Assembly (NCBI GenBank): GCA_965248355.1 | Contig: OZ252098.1 | Span: forward strand, 800,001-864,000 | Source of the DNA: Candidatus Latescibacterota bacterium | Lineage (GTDB): Bacteria; Latescibacterota; UBA2968; UBA8231 | Reading direction: 5' to 3' | Length of the DNA stretch: 64,000 nt | Shown here: piece by piece, positions 24,666-34,069 of the stretch | Position numbering within the stretch: the first letter of the stretch is position 1 | Layout of the letters: each line of letters begins with the position of its first letter | The notes under the pieces: model-generated | Seen by the model: only the letters and a program-made list of their open reading frames with translations | The model's database searches: none | Told to the model about the DNA's origin: nothing | Made by a program: the position numbers and the translations under genes

Positions 24666-25661
24666 ATGGGACGCTCCACGACTCTCGCACTGGCCCTGGC
24701 CGCCATCCTGCTCGCCGCCGGCGACCAGGCCTCCGGACAGACCCGGGAGGAGGGTCCCTGGTGGCCGCACCCGGTCTGGGGTCCCGACGATCAGGCCGGC
24801 GGCTCGAACTGGATCACCCCCGAGGTCGTGCTGCGCGCCGCCCGCCTGGTGGAGACGGGGAAGGTCTACGAGCTCGGCCAGGTCTACGAGTACGGCATGC
24901 CCCTCTTCGGGCAGCGCACCTACTCCCTGAGCATCCCCGGCTCGCCCACGGGCGGACCCTTCGGCGTCAAGAACCAGCTCGTCTACCACGACGAGTTCCT
25001 CTGCGGCGAGATCGGCCAGATCGGCACCCAGTTCGACGGCCCGGGCCACATCGGCACGCGCATGACCATGGGTGACGGCTCCACGGCCGATGTCTTCTAC
25101 AACGGCGTGACCCGGGAGGAGATGAAGGGCGCCTACGGCCTGAAGAAGCTGGGCATCGAGAACATCAAGCCCTTCTTCACCCGCGGCGTGCTCATCGACG
25201 TGGCCGGCCTCAAGGGGGTCGACGCCCTCGATCACAGCTACGAGGTCACCGTGGCCGACGTGCGCGGCGCCCTCGAGCGCCAGGGGATGTCGGAGGCGGA
25301 GTTGCGGCCCGGCGACGCCCTGCTCTTCCGCTACGGCTGGTCGAAGCACTGGAAGGATCCGGAGAAGTACAACACCAACCCGCCCGGCATCGGCATGGAG
25401 GTGGCCGCCTGGCTCGTGGAGCGCCAGCCGTCGATGATCGGCTCCGACCAGTGGACCACCGAGGTCGTGCCGAACCCCGACCCGGATCTCCAGTTCCCCG
25501 TGCACCAGGAGCTGATCACCAAGGCCGGCATCTGGAACCTGGAGAACATGGTCTACGACGGTCTCGCGGAGGACGAGGTCCACGAGTTCCTCTTCGTCTT
25601 CACGCCGGTTCCATTCAAGGGAGGGACCGGGTCCCCCGGCCGGCCGATCGCGATCCGATGA
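24666..25661 (+). CDS. secreted cyclase-family (kynurenine formamidase-like) metal hydrolase
   Basis: Signal peptide; WGPDDQAG, QIGTQFDGPGH, TRGVLID, NLEN and GGTGSP motifs. Confidence 0.85.
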   Translation: MGRSTTLALALAAILLAAGDQASGQTREEGPWWPHPVWGPDDQAGGSNWITPEVVLRAARLVETGKVYELGQVYEYGMPLFGQRTYSLSIPGSPTGGPFGVKNQLVYHDEFLCGEIGQIGTQFDGPGHIGTRMTMGDGSTADVFYNGVTREEMKGAYGLKKLGIENIKPFFTRGVLIDVAGLKGVDALDHSYEVTVADVRGALERQGMSEAELRPGDALLFRYGWSKHWKDPEKYNTNPPGIGMEVAAWLVERQPSMIGSDQWTTEVVPNPDPDLQFPVHQELITKAGIWNLENMVYDGLAEDEVHEFLFVFTPVPFKGGTGSPGRPIAIR

Positions 25662-28327
25662 CGGTACCGACACCCGCGTCGCTGAGCCGGCTCTGCCGGG
25701 GCGCCCTGCCCGCGATCCTCGACGCCGCCGACGGCAAGGGGATGATGAAGATGGTGGAGGTGATCGTCGAGCACGATCGCTGGAACTCCTTCGACCGCTT
25801 CCACGACACCACCGGGGCCCTCGTCGAGATGTACGGGAAGGCGGGAGCCGGCGCCGAGGTGACCCCGGTCCAGACCGGCGGGCGCATCGGCACGGGACGC
25901 TGGATCATCCAGGAGGCCCAGGACGTCAGCGCGGCCACCCTCGACGTGGTGCAGCCCTTCCGCGAGCGCGTCGCCGACTACCTCGAGAACCCCTGGCACG
26001 CCGTGCAGTGGACGGCGGCCACCGCCACGGGCGGGTTGCGCTGCGAGCTGGTCGTGGTCGACGACGAGGAGGCCCTGGATCGCATGGGTCCCGACGCCCT
26101 CGACGGGCGGGCGGTGCTCACGCGGCTCGACATCCGGGGCCGCATGGAGCGGTTCGCCCAGAAGGGGGCCGCCGCGGTCATCATGGACAAGGAGATGCCC
26201 AACAATCCCGGCGCCGTGGCCTGGACCAAGTTCGGCTGGGGGGCCGTGCCCATGGATCACGCCACGGCCAGGCTCGTGGGCCTGGTCCTGTCGCGCCGCC
26301 AGGGCGACCGCCTCCGGAAGCAGCTGGGGCAGCACCCGGGCCTCGTCGTCGAGATCCACGTCGACGCCCGGCGCTACGTGGGCCGCCACGACGTCGTCTC
26401 CGGACTGATACCCGGCCGCGACGACCCCCAGGACGAGGTCTGGGCCATCGCTCATTCGGCCGAGCCCGGGGCCGTGGACAACGCCTCGGGGTGCGCCGTG
26501 ACCGTCGAGATCGCGCGGGTCCTCGAGGGGCTGATCGCCTCCGGGGCCCTGCCCCGCCCACGGCGGACGATCCGCCTGCTCAACGGCTACGAGTGCTACG
26601 GGTTCTTCGCCTACCTCGAAAGGGTGCAGCGCCTGCAGCCGCCCCTGGCCGGCGTCTGCATCGACACCCTCGGCTCCCAGCCGGCGATCTGCGACGGCCG
26701 CCTGGAGTGGCGGGCGACGATACCGGGCTCGGCCGGGTTCGTCGACTGGATCGGCGAGAAGATCCTGCGCTCCACCCTGCGGCAGTACCGCGACGCCGGC
26801 TACCACCTCTCCCTCGGGCCCTTCATGGCCACCAGCGACACCCTGATCGGCGATCCCCAGTACGGCTACCCCTGCCCGTGGATCACCAACCACCACAAGC
26901 GCGACGGCAGCTCCTGGGACGCCTACCACTCCTCGGCGGACCAGCTCGAGCTGCTGAGCCCGGCGGGGCTCAAGACCTGCGCCGCGGCCATGGCCGCGTA
27001 CCTCTACTACCTGGCCGACGCCGCCACACCCGAGGTCGTGCAGATCGCCCGGTCCGAGACGGACCGCCTCACCGGGGAGCTGCGCGCCCACCGCCGCCGC
27101 CTGGACCGGGACGGCGCCGAGTTCCTGCGCCGGGCCCACGAGACGAGCCTGACGCGGCTGCAGCGCTGGCTGTGGGGCGGCGACCGCGCCGAGGCGATGG
27201 CCGAGCTGGACGGGATGAGCCGGGAGATGGACGAGGCCGCTGCGAGCGTTCGGCGCCGGGGCCCGGTACTGCGTTCCTCGGCGTCTCTGCGCCGCATCCC
27301 GCGCCGCACGGCGCTGCTGACGCCGACCACCGAGAACCTGCCGACGCCGGTGGCGCGGAAGATCTCCAGCGCCGGGCAGAGCCCCTGGGCGCTGTACTGG
27401 GCCGATGGCCGCCGCACCCTCGCCGAGATCACCGCCGCCCTGGCCTGGGAGCGCGGCGGCCTGCTGGAGCCCGGGGCCGCCCCGAGGCGCGGGGAGGTGA
27501 AGGCCGAGGACGTGGTCCGCTTCTTCGAGGCCCACGCCGAGCTCGACTACGTGGACATGCCCGAACGGCACGAGATGGTGGACAAGGAGAGAATCGTCGC
27601 CGACCTGCGCCGCCTCGGCGTGGAGCGCGGCATGGACCTCATGGTCCACAGCTCGCTGTCGAACATCGGCCATGTCGAGGGCGGGGCCGACACGGTCGTC
27701 TCGGCGCTGCTCGAAGCGGTGGGCTCCTCGGGGACGCTGCTCATGCCCTCCTTCAACCACCGTGCCGCCCAGATCTACAACCGGATGGCGACGCCGACGA
27801 CCAACGGCGCCATCTCCGACGCCTTCTGGCGCCTCCCCACGGCGGTTCGCAGCGAGCACGCCACCCACGCGGTGGCCGCCCTGGGTCCGCGGGCCGAGCG
27901 CTATTGCGCCTCCCACCTGGAGGCGGGGATCTGGGAGCCGGAGAGCCCCATCGGCCAGCTCGTCCACGGCGGCGGCTGGATCCTGGCCCTCGGCACCACC
28001 CACTGGACCTCCACGGCCTACCACGTGGCCGAGATGTCCGTGCCCTGCGGCTGCATCGACCCCTTCGGCAACATCGACCGCGTCGTGGGCGACGATGGCC
28101 GGGTCGAGGAGGTCTGGGGGCTGGCCTTCCGCAAGGGCGAGTGCCCTGTGGAGATCTCTCCGAAGCTGGACGACGCCCTGGACCGCCGCGGCCTGCAGCG
28201 GCGCGGCAGGGTGGGGGAGGCGGACTGCGAGCTGGTGCGGGCCGAGGACCTGTGGCGCCTGCGCCGCGAGCACCTGCGTCCGGTCTGCCCGACCTGCAGG
28301 ATCTCCCCCAGCTACCGGGACGGCTGA
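25658..28327 (+). CDS. fusion of an M28/DUF4910-like metallopeptidase with a C-terminal AAC(3)/YokD-family N-acetyltransferase (from about 27575)
   Basis: AHSAEPGAVDNASG, RTIRLL..YE, SD, YHSSAD and DGRRTL.EI wHTH-like segment, then LGV..G..LMVHSSLS.IG, GTLLMPSF, RS.H.THAVAA.G and TAYHVAE. Confidence 0.8.
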   Translation: MTVPTPASLSRLCRGALPAILDAADGKGMMKMVEVIVEHDRWNSFDRFHDTTGALVEMYGKAGAGAEVTPVQTGGRIGTGRWIIQEAQDVSAATLDVVQPFRERVADYLENPWHAVQWTAATATGGLRCELVVVDDEEALDRMGPDALDGRAVLTRLDIRGRMERFAQKGAAAVIMDKEMPNNPGAVAWTKFGWGAVPMDHATARLVGLVLSRRQGDRLRKQLGQHPGLVVEIHVDARRYVGRHDVVSGLIPGRDDPQDEVWAIAHSAEPGAVDNASGCAVTVEIARVLEGLIASGALPRPRRTIRLLNGYECYGFFAYLERVQRLQPPLAGVCIDTLGSQPAICDGRLEWRATIPGSAGFVDWIGEKILRSTLRQYRDAGYHLSLGPFMATSDTLIGDPQYGYPCPWITNHHKRDGSSWDAYHSSADQLELLSPAGLKTCAAAMAAYLYYLADAATPEVVQIARSETDRLTGELRAHRRRLDRDGAEFLRRAHETSLTRLQRWLWGGDRAEAMAELDGMSREMDEAAASVRRRGPVLRSSASLRRIPRRTALLTPTTENLPTPVARKISSAGQSPWALYWADGRRTLAEITAALAWERGGLLEPGAAPRRGEVKAEDVVRFFEAHAELDYVDMPERHEMVDKERIVADLRRLGVERGMDLMVHSSLSNIGHVEGGADTVVSALLEAVGSSGTLLMPSFNHRAAQIYNRMATPTTNGAISDAFWRLPTAVRSEHATHAVAALGPRAERYCASHLEAGIWEPESPIGQLVHGGGWILALGTTHWTSTAYHVAEMSVPCGCIDPFGNIDRVVGDDGRVEEVWGLAFRKGECPVEISPKLDDALDRRGLQRRGRVGEADCELVRAEDLWRLRREHLRPVCPTCRISPSYRDG

Positions 28328-29844: not shown

Positions 29845-30735
29845 ATGGCCGGCCCCCTCACCCTGCTCAGCATCGGCGCCCACCCGGCCGACATCTTCGA
29901 TCAGTCGGGGGGCACCATGGCCCACCACGTGCAGCGCGGCGACCGCGTCGCCTGCGCCGTGCTCACCCACGGGGCCCGCGTCCACGACGCCGAGGTCAGC
30001 GACGCCATGTTCCACCGCAGGCAGGTGCCGGAGGCCGGGGAGCTGACCTCCCTGATGGAGGAGCGCGCCGAGGTCAAGGCCGGGGAGGTCCGCCGCGCCT
30101 GCGCCCTCCTCGGCGTGGAGGAGATCCACTTCCTCGGCTTCGACGACGCCGTGCTGCAGGCCACCGAGGAGATCGTGCGCCGCGTGGCGAGCCTGCTGCG
30201 CCAGGTGCGCCCCCACGTGGTCCTCACCCACTTCCCGTACGAGGGCAACGCCGTCAACGCCCACGCCGTCACCGGTCAGATCTGCCTGCTGGCCCTGGGG
30301 CTGGCCGGCAGCGTCGACCCCGGCGACCGCAACCCGCCGCTCCGGACCGCCCAGGTCTTCTTCTTCGGCACCGGCGCCGCGCCCCTGCCGCGCGATGTTT
30401 GGGGCGCCCGGGGCGGGTTCTACAACGATGTCTTCATCGACATCGGCGACGTGGTGGACAAGAAGCTGGCCGCCCTCGACGCCTTGGTCAGCCAGGGCTA
30501 CGGCGGCGCTTACGCCCGCAAGCGCATCGAGACCTCCGACGGCGCCTTCGGCAACGCCGCCCACTGCAGCTACGCCGAGGGCTTCATCAAGATGAACGCC
30601 GAGTGCCACCACTACCTGCCGGTGACCGATCGGGCCCTCGAGATGGCGGGGTTGAGCGACCACCAGATGATCGCCCGGGCATCGCTCCGGCAGGACGTGG
30701 ACCAGGGCGCTTCCGGGGCTGGTTCCTCCGCTTGA
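29845..30735 (+). CDS. PIG-L/LmbE-family deacetylase
   Basis: GAHPAD..D..GGT, LT.G, ACALLG, LTH, KL.AL...SQ and YAEGF motifs. Confidence 0.82.
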   Translation: MAGPLTLLSIGAHPADIFDQSGGTMAHHVQRGDRVACAVLTHGARVHDAEVSDAMFHRRQVPEAGELTSLMEERAEVKAGEVRRACALLGVEEIHFLGFDDAVLQATEEIVRRVASLLRQVRPHVVLTHFPYEGNAVNAHAVTGQICLLALGLAGSVDPGDRNPPLRTAQVFFFGTGAAPLPRDVWGARGGFYNDVFIDIGDVVDKKLAALDALVSQGYGGAYARKRIETSDGAFGNAAHCSYAEGFIKMNAECHHYLPVTDRALEMAGLSDHQMIARASLRQDVDQGASGAGSSA

Positions 30736-30760
30736 CATGGGCCGCCCTCCGGCGTAAGGT
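30732..30760 (+). promoter_or_regulatory. strong sigma70-like promoter TTGACA-17-TAAGGT
   Basis: Perfect -35, 17-bp spacer, TAnnnT -10. Confidence 0.75.
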
Positions 30761-30766
30761 ACTGGC

Positions 30767-30922
30767 ATCCCCAGGCCGGTTCCTTCGGGTTCCGGCCGAA
30801 CCGGAACGACGGTAGGCCGCCTCGTACCGCCGTTTCGGAAAGTCGAGCGGTCCTCTGCTTTCTCCTACGCTCGACCTTGTTTCTCCATAGGCAGGAGGCC
30901 TTCGGGCCTCCTGCCTATTTTT
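30767..30922 (+). ncRNA. putative structured small RNA or cis-regulatory leader (three hairpins plus a terminator); family not recognised
   Basis: Hairpins at 30774-30797 (cUUCGg loop), 30801-30838 and 30842-30875 (CU-rich loop), lying between a promoter and a terminator. Confidence 0.7.
30887..30922 (+). terminator. intrinsic terminator ATAGGCAGGAGGCC-TTCG-GGCCTCCTGCCTAT followed by a T run
   Basis: Perfect 14-bp stem, UUCG loop, T-tract. Confidence 0.85.
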
Positions 30923-30923
30923 C

Positions 30924-32237
30924 ATGTCGCCCGAACCGCCCACGATCCTCCCACCCGCGATCCTCCCCATGACCCTCTCCCGTGAAGCTGCGGCCGCCCT
31001 CGACCGGCGGCTGGCCCGCGTCGACGACACCGAGCCGCGGATCCGGGCCCTGGTCCCGGAGGCGGACCGCCGCCGGCGTCTGGCCGCCGAGCTGGAGGCC
31101 GCGCCGGAGGGCCCCCTGGGCCACCTGCTGGTGGGCGTGAAGGACATCTTCCACGCGCGGGGTCTGCCCACCCGGGCCGGTACCGAGCTGCCCGCCGGGC
31201 TCTTCGCCGCCGAGGGCGCCGAGGAGGCCGACGCCGACTGCGTGGCCGCCCTGCGGGCGGCCGGAGCGGTGGTGCTCGGCAAGGCGGCGACCACCGAGTT
31301 CGCCTACTTCGAGCCGGGGCCCACGCGCAATCCGCGCGATCCCGCCCACACCCCCGGCGGCTCCTCCAGCGGCTCGGCGGCGGCGGTGGCGGCCGGGTAC
31401 TGCGAGCTGGCCCTGGGGTCCCAGACCGTGGGCTCCGTCATGCGGCCGGCCGCGTTCTGCGGCGTCGTGGGGTTCAAGCCGAGCTACGGGCGCGTGCCCC
31501 GCGGCGGCCTGCTGCTGTGCTCCCCGTCGGTGGACACGGTGGGGCTCTTCGCCCCCGACGCGGCCACGGCGGCCCGGGGGGCCGAAGTGATCGTCGAGGG
31601 ATGGGACTCCTCCGTTGCCCGGAATCTCCGGGCGGCCGACTCGCCCCGGCCCGTCCTCGGCGTGCCGGAGGGTCCGTACCTGTGGCACGCCTCGCCGGAG
31701 GGCCTGGCGGCCTTCGAAGAGCAGTCGGGGAAGCTGGAGTCCGCCGGCTTTCGGGTGAAGCGGCTGGAGGTCCTGGCCGACATCGACGAGGTCAACGAGC
31801 GCCACCGGGACCTGCACGCGGCGGAGATGGCCATCGAGCACGCCGGATGGCTGGAGGAATACCTCCATCTCTACCGGCCGCTGACCCGCGAGTTCCTGCT
31901 GGGCGGCCGGGAGATCCCCGAGACGCGGCGGCTGGAGGCCCGGGAAGGGCGCGGGCGGCTGCGGCGCCAGCTGGAGGAGGCCATGGGGGCGGAAGGCGTC
32001 GACCTCTGGATCTGCCCGTCGGCGGTGGGGCCCGCCCCCCGCGGCCTGGAGGCGACGGGGGATCCGGTCATGAACCTGCCGTGGACCCACTCCGGCCTGC
32101 CGGCCCTGAGCCTGCCCGCGGGCCTCGTCGGCCGGCTGCCCCTGGGCCTGCAGTGCGTGGCCGCCCACGGCCGCGACGAGTCCCTCATGGCCTGGGGCGC
32201 CGCCCTCGAGGCGGCCCTGGGACCCGTCGGGGGCTGA
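30924..32237 (+). CDS. amidase-signature family enzyme (start may be 30969)
   Basis: VKD, GKAATTEFA, PGGSSSGSAAAVA, GSQT.GS..RPAAFCG and GFKPS motifs. Confidence 0.9.
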   Translation: MSPEPPTILPPAILPMTLSREAAAALDRRLARVDDTEPRIRALVPEADRRRRLAAELEAAPEGPLGHLLVGVKDIFHARGLPTRAGTELPAGLFAAEGAEEADADCVAALRAAGAVVLGKAATTEFAYFEPGPTRNPRDPAHTPGGSSSGSAAAVAAGYCELALGSQTVGSVMRPAAFCGVVGFKPSYGRVPRGGLLLCSPSVDTVGLFAPDAATAARGAEVIVEGWDSSVARNLRAADSPRPVLGVPEGPYLWHASPEGLAAFEEQSGKLESAGFRVKRLEVLADIDEVNERHRDLHAAEMAIEHAGWLEEYLHLYRPLTREFLLGGREIPETRRLEAREGRGRLRRQLEEAMGAEGVDLWICPSAVGPAPRGLEATGDPVMNLPWTHSGLPALSLPAGLVGRLPLGLQCVAAHGRDESLMAWGAALEAALGPVGG

Positions 32238-32325: not shown

Positions 32326-33198
32326 ATGAAGCTGAGCAAGGACCAGATCGAGTTCTATCGCGAGAGGGGGTACCTCGGGGTGGAGGGGGTGTTCTCGACG
32401 GCCGAAGTCGCGGAGTTGAGCCGGGTGACCGACGAGTTCGTGGAGAAGTCGCGCACCGTGATCGAGCATGACGACATCTTCGATCTCGAGCCCGACCACA
32501 CGCCCGAGTTCCCCAAGCTGCGCCGCCTCAAGACCCCCGCCCGTCACCACGAGGTCTACGACCGCGCCCTGCGCAACGACCGTGTCCTCGACATCGTCAG
32601 CCAGCTCGTCGGCACCGAGGCCCTGCGCGGCCACGGGAACAAGCTCAACATCAAGGCCGCCGACTTCGGCAGTCCCGTGGAGTGGCACCAGGACTGGGCC
32701 TTCTACCCGCACACCAACGACGACATGCTGGCCGTCGGCGTCTGCATCGACGAGATGTCGGAGGAGAACGGCTGTCTTCTCGTGATCCCCGGCTCCCACA
32801 AGGGTCCGGTCCTCGACCACCACCAGGACGGCCGCTTCGCCGGCGCCGTCACCGATCCCGCCTTCGACGACTCCACGGCCGAGAAGGTGGAGCTGCCCGC
32901 CGGCGGCATCTCCCTCCACCACGTGCGCGCCCTCCACGGCTCGCTGTCCAACCACTCGCCGAACCCGCGGCGCCTGCTGTTGTTCGAGTACGGCGCCGGC
33001 GATTCCTGGCCGCTGAGAGGCGCGGACTGGGAGGCCTACTGCAACGCCTTCGTGCGCGGCGAGCCCTCCATCCAGCCTCGCCTGGCCGCGGTCCCCGTGC
33101 GGCTGGCCCTGCCGGCGGCGTTGCGGGCGGGCTCCATCTACGAGAACCAGAGCGTCCTCAAGAGCACGACCTTCAAGTCCGCCGCCCCCAAGGGCTGA
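32326..33198 (+). CDS. phytanoyl-CoA dioxygenase (PhyH)-family Fe/2OG dioxygenase
   Basis: WHQD, ENGCL.VIPGSH and HGS..N.S..PRR motifs. Confidence 0.9.
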   Translation: MKLSKDQIEFYRERGYLGVEGVFSTAEVAELSRVTDEFVEKSRTVIEHDDIFDLEPDHTPEFPKLRRLKTPARHHEVYDRALRNDRVLDIVSQLVGTEALRGHGNKLNIKAADFGSPVEWHQDWAFYPHTNDDMLAVGVCIDEMSEENGCLLVIPGSHKGPVLDHHQDGRFAGAVTDPAFDDSTAEKVELPAGGISLHHVRALHGSLSNHSPNPRRLLLFEYGAGDSWPLRGADWEAYCNAFVRGEPSIQPRLAAVPVRLALPAALRAGSIYENQSVLKSTTFKSAAPKG

Positions 33199-33247: not shown

Positions 33248-34069
33248 ATGGGCCTCGTCGACTCGCTGCGGGACCAGGTCCTGGGGCAGGGCTACTGCAT
33301 CCTGGAGGAGGTCATCCCCTCCGACCGCGTCGGCCGGGTGCGCGACGGCGTGCTGCAGGCGGCGTCCTCCCACAACCGTCCCGACGCGCCCGCCAACCGC
33401 GGCGCCGTGTCGGGGCTGATCAACCACACCCAGGGCTTCGCCCCTTACCTGGCCGACCCGCGGCTGACGGGCCTGACCCAGGCCCTGCTGGGCCGGCCGG
33501 TGCGCGTCTCCTTCACCTCCACCATCATCAGCTATCCGGAGGCCGAGCGCCTCCAGTGGCACGCCGACTGGCCCTTCAACCAGAACAACGCCGGCCACAT
33601 CCCGGCGCCCTATCTCGACGCCGTCGTTCACCTCACCTCGATCTGGATGCTCAGCGACTTCACGATCGCCAACGGCGCCACCCTCATCGTGCCGGGCAGT
33701 CACCGCGAGCCCAACAACCCCACCGGCGGCAACGGCGTTCCCATGTTTGAGCCGCACCCCGACGAGATCCACGTGGAGGGGAAGGCGGGCACGGTGATGG
33801 TCATGGACAGCCGCATGTGGCACGCCACTCCGCGCAACGACAGCGGCGAGATCCGCGTGGGCCTGGCCATCCGCTGGGCCCCCTGGTGGCTGAACCTCGA
33901 CGTGCTCATGCCCGCCTCCGACGACCGGGACCGCCTCCTGGAGGAGACCGGCGGCAAGGAGAACCAGGTGCCCCTGGTGGAGCCGGAGGTCTTCGCGGCC
34001 CTGCCGGCGGACGTGCAACCCCTCTTCCGGCACTGGCTCCGCGGCGGGGCGAACTGGCCCGGGGCCTGA
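33248..34069 (+). CDS. phytanoyl-CoA dioxygenase (PhyH)-family dioxygenase
   Basis: WHAD, NGATLIVPGSH and DSRMWH...N...R motifs. Confidence 0.9.
   Translation: MGLVDSLRDQVLGQGYCILEEVIPSDRVGRVRDGVLQAASSHNRPDAPANRGAVSGLINHTQGFAPYLADPRLTGLTQALLGRPVRVSFTSTIISYPEAERLQWHADWPFNQNNAGHIPAPYLDAVVHLTSIWMLSDFTIANGATLIVPGSHREPNNPTGGNGVPMFEPHPDEIHVEGKAGTVMVMDSRMWHATPRNDSGEIRVGLAIRWAPWWLNLDVLMPASDDRDRLLEETGGKENQVPLVEPEVFAALPADVQPLFRHWLRGGANWPGA

Follow-up and report, generated by a model that had tools for sequence, protein, structure and literature searches.

Within a 64,000-nucleotide (nt) stretch of a Candidatus Latescibacterota genome (contig OZ252098.1, positions 800,001 to 864,000; the whole stretch is here called the window), we identified an independent non-coding RNA gene, which has a sigma-70-type promoter and an intrinsic terminator of its own (Table 1). 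The gene has what bacterial small RNA (sRNA) genes generally have: a conserved promoter and terminator, a conserved structure and no conserved open reading frame (ORF). It constitutes a new family within a known kind of RNA, the terminator-ended sRNAs with CU-rich seeds, and our analysis suggests that it is probably a trans-acting base-pairing sRNA of the anti-Shine-Dalgarno (anti-SD) type, with redundant anti-SD-like seeds. An initial annotation, made from the letters of the window alone, had left the choice between a trans-acting sRNA with exposed anti-SD stretches and a riboswitch or attenuator of the neighbouring amidase gene. The former fits what we found, namely a conserved promoter and terminator, covarying helices, invariant CU-rich motifs and a single copy.

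The promoter, the hairpins, the 18-nt loop, the linker and the 14-bp terminator with its UUCG loop, all described in that annotation, were found in place, and the terminator stem was also picked up by a terminator scan. The minimum free energy fold of positions 30762-30925 consists of exactly these four hairpins and reaches -81.7 kcal/mol, compared to -56.7 +/- 3.9 kcal/mol for shuffled sequences (z-score of -6.4; 0 of 200 shuffles were equally good). The reverse complement folds nearly as well (z-score of -5.6), and folding energy alone therefore cannot fix the strand; it is the promoter, the T-tract and the many G-U pairs that place the RNA on the + strand. We infer the exact 5' end from the distance to the -10 hexamer.

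Table 1. Parts of the sRNA gene in window coordinates, and an example of the second sRNA gene (RNA-2) in coordinates of its own locus.
Feature	Position	Strand	Basis
-35 hexamer TTGACA	30732-30737	+	Sequence
-10 hexamer TAAGGT, 17-nt spacer from -35	30755-30760	+	Sequence, homologue alignments
Predicted transcript, about 157-160 nt	30764-30923	+	Promoter geometry and terminator; start placed at about 30764-30768 from the -10 hexamer, end in the U-tract
5' single-stranded C-rich motif CAUCCCCA	30766-30773	+	Alignment A1
Hairpin 1 (GGCCGG..CC-UUCG-GG..CCGGCC), most variable helix	30774-30797	+	Fold and covariation
Hairpin 2	30801-30838; apical loop GGCCGCCUCG, containing CGCCUC, 30815-30824	+	Fold and covariation
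Hairpin 3 (GUCGAGCG/CGCUCGAC)	30842-30875; 18-nt loop GUCCUCUGCUUUCUCCUA 30850-30867	+	Fold and covariation
Single-stranded linker CUUGUUUCUCC, with second UUUCUCC motif	30876-30886	+	Fold and alignment
Intrinsic terminator, 14-bp stem with UUCG loop	30887-30918, then T5/U5 30919-30923	+	Terminator scan and covariation
RNA-2 (example)	L028:1352-1446	+	Also in L029, L031, L030, L032 and L064 (alignment A4)

Comparison with related genomes supports the structure. Of 60 relatives searched with blastn, 10 contained the element (75-91% identity); weak matches in G033 (31 nt, E 0.002) and G056 (22 nt, E 0.008) were not counted as homologues. With a covariance model (R1), the RNA was detected in each of the nine further genomes of the window's genus (g1) and in more distant genera. 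Two alignments were analysed: a close alignment (A1) of 11 sequences from 3 genera and a shared-core alignment (A3) of 17 sequences from 6 genera; a model built from A3 located the RNA in a seventh genus (g15, genome G023). RNAalifold applied to A1 returned the same four helices, with 44 pairs of which 16 are compensatory. Counted pair by pair, 99.4% of the 481 cells in A1 are paired and 17 of the 44 pairs (48 cells) have changed on both sides, a result not reached by any of 500 shuffles, while sliding the partners by 1-3 columns leaves only 35-52% paired. The structure first drawn from a single sequence is thus conserved, and all four helices are backed by covariation. Hairpin 1 has 9 pairs in A1, 5 of them changed on both sides, with 100% of the cells paired; hairpin 2 has 14 pairs, 3 compensatory, with 99.4% paired. 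For hairpin 3, compensatory changes affect 4 of 8 pairs in A1 and 5 of 8 in A3, and for the terminator 5 of 13 and 9 of 13, respectively. Across the A3 core, 95.9% of the cells are paired, 17 of 29 pairs are compensatory and 0 of 500 shuffles did equally well. Additionally, the loops carry insertions and deletions of 1, 2 and 4 nt, which excludes a conserved reading frame.

The promoter is conserved as well. The -35 hexamer is kept as TTGAC(A/T) in 11 of 11 close homologues and in six divergent ones, and the -10 hexamer is kept as TAnnnT (TAAAGT, TAACGT, TAAGAT, TAGGAT, TAGGGT and TACGGT occur, with TACCGT or ATACCG in G020 only), whereas the 17-nt spacer between them varies. When flanks were included in the alignment, neither the spacer nor the sequence beyond promoter and terminator proved conserved; hexamers that persist while spacer and flanks vary are a promoter signature and not the effect of general conservation. 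Divergent genera have extra hairpins in the 5' half, and most of these forms retain a TTGACw-17-TAnnnT promoter with a CCCC-containing motif right behind it, together with the loop of hairpin 2, the whole of hairpin 3, the linker and the terminator. A natural deletion of hairpin 3 and its CU-rich loop was observed in G009, a member of the window's genus (L027/L041); there the RNA has kept its promoter, the first two hairpins, the linker motif and its terminator.

Conservation extends to the single strands. Four unpaired motifs are invariant in A1: the 5' motif CAUCCCCA (11 of 11 sequences), the loop GGCCGCCUCG, the loop CCUC..CUUUCUCC and UUCUCC in the linker; within the hairpin-3 loop, the invariant parts are CCU and CU.UCUCC. 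Unpaired columns are conserved at least as well as paired ones, with 40 of 69 invariant in A1 versus 42 of 88. The family's most conserved stretch, CGCCUC of the hairpin-2 loop, is unchanged in 17 of 17 sequences and is the only motif that is fully invariant across all seven genera. AUCCCCA or a near variant (e.g. AAUCCCCA) stands just past the promoter in the divergent genera, except in G023 of g15, in which none was seen at this place. The linker motif UCUCC, invariant in A1, is also kept in G020, the other divergent genera having UUCCC, UUCCCC or ACUCC instead. The 3' end of the 16S rRNA in the window's genome (G000) reads ..CACCUCCUUUCU, and the exposed stretches AUCCCCA, CGCCUCG, CCUC..CUUUCUCC and UUUCUCC resemble this host's own 16S 3' tail (..GGAUCACCUCCUUUCU).

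The RNA is absent from catalogues of known families. Rfam 15 gave no match at gathering score across the whole window, nor in seven homologous loci, in agreement with the initial annotation, in which no known riboswitch had been recognised. Up to E = 10, only sub-threshold matches appeared, namely mir-1976 (19.6 bits versus 71), sX9 (15.6 versus 44) and SorY (14.7 versus 111), and the RsaE covariance model was not among them. Full-text literature searches returned no regulatory RNA or sRNA described for the host lineage. In G000 (5.5 Mb, one contig) the gene is present once: a sequence search matched only the locus itself and its own palindromic terminator, and the covariance model gave a single match. 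Likewise, the family search gave one true copy per genome. A dispersed repeat of the repetitive extragenic palindrome (REP) or miniature inverted-repeat transposable element (MITE) type, a possibility raised at the outset, is excluded by the single copy in 5.5 Mb.

With a core model (R2) and inspection of each weak match, we found the RNA in 19 of 76 genomes of the family, G000 included, and in 7 of its 18 genera. Every genome of these genera carries it: ten of ten in g1 (G000 and nine others), two of two in g6, three of three in g17 and the single genomes of g8, g12, g2 and g15. It was not found in the 11 other genera of the family, including g14 (0 of 31 genomes), nor in an even sample of the phylum (0 of 87 genomes from 13 other families); these large searches used stricter filters and may have missed weak relatives. 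Several covariance matches were rejected upon inspection, as they consisted of a tRNA followed by a terminator (L033/L068, L069, L070 and L071) or of a terminator behind the 3' end of a coding sequence (L065, L066 and L067, in G098, G081 and G099). An exact-pattern scan of the genomes of 185,579 species yielded 14 loci, of which 12 are real; L043 and L046 are chance matches inside coding sequence of unrelated metagenome-assembled genomes. The titles given by the depositors to the 12 real records name Gemmatimonadaceae/Gemmatimonadetes (five), Candidatus Latescibacterota (six) or 'bacterium' (one), and in the genome collection one genus bears titles from two phyla, Gemmatimonadota and Candidatus Latescibacterota, meaning that the labels are inconsistent.

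Traces of the RNA occur in public libraries. Four runs were compared with positions 30500-31200: three metatranscriptomes from one study, labelled sponge metagenome, and one run from another study, whose RNA nature is a guess. Each run contains one contig of 151-186 nt over the body of the RNA with 0-1 differences (99-100% identity). These contigs span from 30779 or 30782 to 30889, 30898, 30927 or 30932, and a 154-nt contig corresponds to exactly 30779-30932. They document presence in RNA libraries only, since ends, strand and level cannot be read from them and DNA carry-over is possible. No contig of at least 99% identity covers 30500-30778 or 30933-31200, which proves nothing and is not used as evidence; contig pieces at 30502-30557 and 30606-30638 have 2-5 differences and continue into unlike sequence.

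How could such an RNA act? We infer a trans base-pairing mechanism, and with it any target. The four helices would form a scaffold that presents four pyrimidine-rich single strands, i.e. the 5' CAUCCCCA, CGCCUCG, CCUC..CUUUCUCC and UUUCUCC. At least one of these exposed stretches would pair in trans with purine-rich ribosome-binding regions (GGAG, GAGG or GGAGAAA) of target mRNAs, and the pairing would block binding of the 30S subunit and/or alter mRNA stability. Classical chaperones would not be involved, as in the sRNAs of Firmicutes that act through C-rich regions. The host does use SD sites, with GGAG/GAGG peaking at positions -14 to -9 of candidate starts at about 4-fold above background. 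A search of G000 (one contig, 95.7% complete) for Hfq, CsrA and ProQ domains, in which the controls behaved as expected, found none of them.

Several observations weigh against this interpretation. In a target scan across G000 (8-nt seed plus duplex energy, 12,743 sites), the best sites were not enriched at translation starts: for the four segments, 2.5-5% of the top 40 sites are start-like, versus 3-8% of all seed sites. Exact seeds occur in G000 at about chance frequency, and the target candidates listed there resemble noise and were discarded; complementarity between CU-rich and GA-rich sequence is of low complexity and easily met by chance. Moreover, the promoter was missed by a consensus promoter scan, TAAGGT matching TATAAT at 3 of 6 positions, and for this reason the promoter call rests on conservation. 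The first position of all four library contigs falls within hairpin 1 (30779-30782), 12-15 nt past the predicted start; this could reflect a processed or different 5' end that lacks CAUCCCCA, or hairpin 1, a variable helix, could have broken the assembly graph. Finally, throughout g1, g6 and g8 the gene directly adjoins the 3' end of a PIG-L/GNAT operon on the same strand and no terminator separates the two, so that part of the RNA could arise there as the 3' end of that operon.

One group of genes deserves mention as possible targets. GGAGAAA in front of a plausible start occurs at 13 genes in G000, and 4 of these encode PhyH dioxygenases. In the duplex energy comparison of 98 PhyH with 3,343 other ORFs, segments S1, S2 and S3 gave no significant difference, and the linker (S4) a weakly significant one (p = 0.011, uncorrected); the anti-SD control string of this comparison was mis-sliced. 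PhyH genes as targets are thus a weak lead, unconfirmed by the energy comparison. The PhyH (phytanoyl-CoA dioxygenase) family is very largely expanded in G000, with 115 matches over the Pfam cut-off. Two PhyH genes (32326-33198 and 33248-34069) follow the amidase gene beside the sRNA, and PhyH recurs near the RNA locus.

In four genera (g17, g12, g15 and g2; genomes G025, G035, G061, G020, G023 and G010) a second uncatalogued sRNA gene, RNA-2, lies head-to-tail directly upstream of the main RNA. It comprises an A-tract, a near-identical strong promoter (TTGACA-17-TAGTAT) and a transcript of about 80-90 nt, of which the first hairpin varies while the terminator hairpin, GGCCGGCAGGA-CAGAGGCGA-UCCUGUCGGCC, is invariant and precedes a U-tract. 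RNA-2 has no Rfam match. It was not found in G000 with blastn or nhmmer, and a pattern scan detected it in 0 of 9 other g1 genomes, 0 of 2 in g6 and 0 of 1 in g8, confining it to the four genera; variant pattern matches in g3 and a second match in G061 lie inside coding sequence and were rejected. The loop of RNA-2 (CAGAGGCGA/GAGGCG(A)) and the invariant (U)CGCCUC loop of the main RNA share 6-7 nt of complementarity, which we treat as a lead and not as a finding.

The genes around the RNA, as identified in Pfam scans of the flanking ORFs and described here with the RNA oriented left to right, differ between genomes. PIG-L precedes the RNA and an amidase follows it in G000, G002, G006 and G007; in G000 and G006, the two genomes in which wider flanks were scanned, Amidohydro_2 stands before PIG-L and PhyH after the amidase. 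The amidase is found downstream in these four genomes only. The RNA is followed by a sulfatase in G003, and by a sulfatase and then GFO/IDH/MocA in G001, where Antibiotic_NAT and a GNAT-like gene lie in front of it. A single GFO/IDH/MocA gene follows in G005, again behind Antibiotic_NAT and a GNAT-like gene, and in G008, where the contig stops shortly before the RNA; two such genes follow in G014 (behind PIG-L and a 352-aa ORF with no Pfam match) and in G028 (behind a GNAT-like gene). After PIG-L, GNAT and the RNA, G016 has GFO/IDH/MocA on the opposite strand, and G009 has GNAT, the RNA and then a convergent PhyH gene. Where RNA-2 is present, the tandem is followed by a Zn-alcohol dehydrogenase in g17 (G025 and G061 scanned; divergent epimerase, plus DsbA, upstream), in g15 (divergent epimerase upstream) and in g12 (AP_endonuc_2 upstream), while in g2 (G010) it lies between two opposite-strand genes, one of beta-lactamase fold upstream and PhyH downstream. 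Altogether, genes of five unrelated families stand behind the RNA, and in three loci (G009, G010 and G016) the downstream neighbour has the opposite orientation. The initial annotation had proposed to compare the downstream gene classes; that they vary favours action in trans.

In the window itself, the upstream PIG-L-family ORF (29845-30735) ends with a TGA stop codon (30733-30735) inside the -35 hexamer of the sRNA gene. The PIG-L operon has no terminator of its own before that of the sRNA, so that read-through from the operon would cross the sRNA. Downstream, the first ATG of the amidase ORF (30924) abuts the U-tract with no SD motif before it, and an in-frame ATG at 30969, 45 nt further on, is an alternative start. 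Further upstream (25451-28327, + strand) lies a 958-aa ORF with a Peptidase_M28 region and a C-terminal Antibiotic_NAT (aminoglycoside 3-N-acetyltransferase-like) domain. Antibiotic_NAT ORFs of at least 520 aa, with the domain at the C-terminus and M28 not detected, recur upstream in G001, G005 (truncated) and G009, alongside PIG-L, GNAT, sulfatase and GFO/IDH/MocA genes. This gene content suggests a putative catabolic island for amino sugars or sulfated glycans.

Could the element instead be a cis-acting leader, a riboswitch or attenuator that steers read-through into the downstream gene? Most loci do have a same-strand gene downstream, which is a Zn-alcohol dehydrogenase in each of the genera g17, g12 and g15, and in the window the amidase ORF begins right after the U-tract. 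Moreover, the two alternative pairings pointed out in the initial annotation exist in G000: 30789-30795 with 30801-30807, between hairpins 1 and 2 (7 of 7 pairs), and loop 3 (30849-30860) with the 5' arm of the terminator (30889-30900; 11 of 12 pairs). Neither of them, however, shows covariation across the homologues. The former is 83% paired and matched by 45 of 500 shuffles. The latter, which would be the antiterminator, is also 83% paired but has 0 compensatory pairs, has 6 of 12 pairs broken in some sequences and is equalled by 500 of 500 shuffles; its partial complementarity arises because a CU-rich loop faces a GA-rich stem arm. The 14-bp terminator is also much more stable than this alternative, the RNA has its own promoter directly behind another gene or the terminator of another RNA, and no Rfam riboswitch matches it. 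With five downstream families and opposite-strand neighbours, the RNA is not the leader of the amidase, and the proposal of an amidase riboswitch or attenuator was not borne out; we consider a cis-acting leader of any kind extremely unlikely. The upstream side offers another explanation, in which the element is the structured 3' end of the PIG-L/GNAT operon, terminating or stabilising its transcript with no regulatory role of its own. The constant position behind a same-strand PIG-L or GNAT-like gene in g1, g6 and g8, with no other terminator, would be accounted for, as would the upstream stop codon inside the -35 hexamer. Yet in g17, g12, g15 and g2 the RNA is detached from the operon and stands behind another small RNA gene, and the invariant unpaired motifs and the conserved promoter would be left unexplained, which makes this explanation highly improbable.

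Two further alternatives accept an independent RNA and differ in its partner. The C/U-rich motifs might bind a protein, for example of the KH, S1 or cold-shock type, and the RNA would then act as a titrating or scaffold RNA through CsrB/6S-like sequestration. This is compatible with a rigid scaffold that exposes four pyrimidine-rich motifs, all invariant in A1, as well as with the lack of an mRNA target from our search and the usual sRNA chaperones not being found in G000. On the other hand, the locus has no linked candidate protein, its neighbours being catabolic enzymes, and CsrA was not found. Known titrating RNAs carry uniform repeats, unlike the mutually different motifs CAUCCCCA, CGCCUCG and CUUUCUCC of this RNA. 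We regard protein titration as unlikely. The partner could also be RNA-2, in which case the sRNA would be one half of an RNA-RNA pair, as partner or decoy and as either sponge or sponged regulator. RNA-2 stands directly upstream in six genomes with a loop complementary to CGCCUC, and a stand-alone G-rich sponge of a C-rich sRNA is known from RosA and RoxS (PMC8216469). But RNA-2 was not found in G000, g6, g8 or the other g1 genomes, although CGCCUC is invariant there, and by our own estimate a 6-nt match between two short loops has a probability of about 5% by chance. An RNA pair as the main function is accordingly unlikely. A broader, speculative scenario would be a chaperone-free two-RNA module in which the GAGGCG(A) loop of RNA-2 kisses CGCCUC and thereby sets the activity of the main RNA; RNA-2 would have been lost in the window's genus, where the regulator became attached to the PIG-L/GNAT/acetyltransferase operon and its UUUCUCC motifs tune expanded catabolic families such as PhyH. 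We give this scenario only a small chance of being correct.

The preferred interpretation, a trans-acting anti-SD sRNA, can be compared with known systems. The closest functional parallel is with the RsaE/RoxS sRNAs of Firmicutes, whose multiple C-rich regions base-pair with G-rich SD sequences; RoxS does not depend on Hfq (PMC4409812) and has a dedicated G-rich sponge RNA, RosA (PMC8216469). RsaE/RoxS and the present sRNA are both stand-alone, terminator-ended and about 100-160 nt long, with several conserved unpaired C-rich stretches complementary to SD regions, and the sRNA described here would, like RoxS, work without Hfq. They differ in that there is no match in sequence or structure up to E 10, that the lineages are different, that the motifs here are CU-rich (CUUUCUCC, CGCCUC and AUCCCCA) instead of UCCC/CCCC repeats, and that the four hairpins do not correspond to the architecture of RoxS. 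The four invariant unpaired C/U-rich motifs support an RNA that works like RsaE/RoxS, not membership of that family.

In Alphaproteobacteria, the hairpin loops of the Cuckoo RNAs (CcsR1-4 and NfeR1, alpha-r14) show several anti-SD-like CCUCC-type motifs per RNA, and several such loop motifs are present here as well. The Cuckoo/CcsR RNAs occur as tandem repeats or in multiple copies, often beside a DUF1127 gene (PMC8034643), whereas the present sRNA is single-copy and has no Rfam match. DUF1127 was absent among the Pfam matches of the scanned flanking ORFs, in which no search aimed at DUF1127 was made. MicL and DapZ of enterobacteria are sRNAs embedded in the 3' end of a gene, with an internal promoter, and they depend on Hfq. 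In g1, g6 and g8 the present gene is similarly located at the very end of a same-strand operon, with a promoter that overlaps the last codons and a shared terminator. In contrast to MicL and DapZ, no part of the RNA lies before the stop codon; in other genera it is detached from the operon, and no Hfq was found.

The family is small, yet unusually well supported for one found purely by computation: it has a promoter and a terminator, its four helices covary, its single strands hold invariant motifs, and RNA libraries contain contigs of it. The alignments A1, A3 and A4 could seed new RNA family models, and the tandem with RNA-2 is a directly testable candidate for an sRNA-sponge pair. If the proposed function is correct, the recurring anti-SD design of sRNAs would be represented in another independent lineage, and the RNA would offer a handle on post-transcriptional control in bacteria in which no Hfq, ProQ or CsrA was detected.

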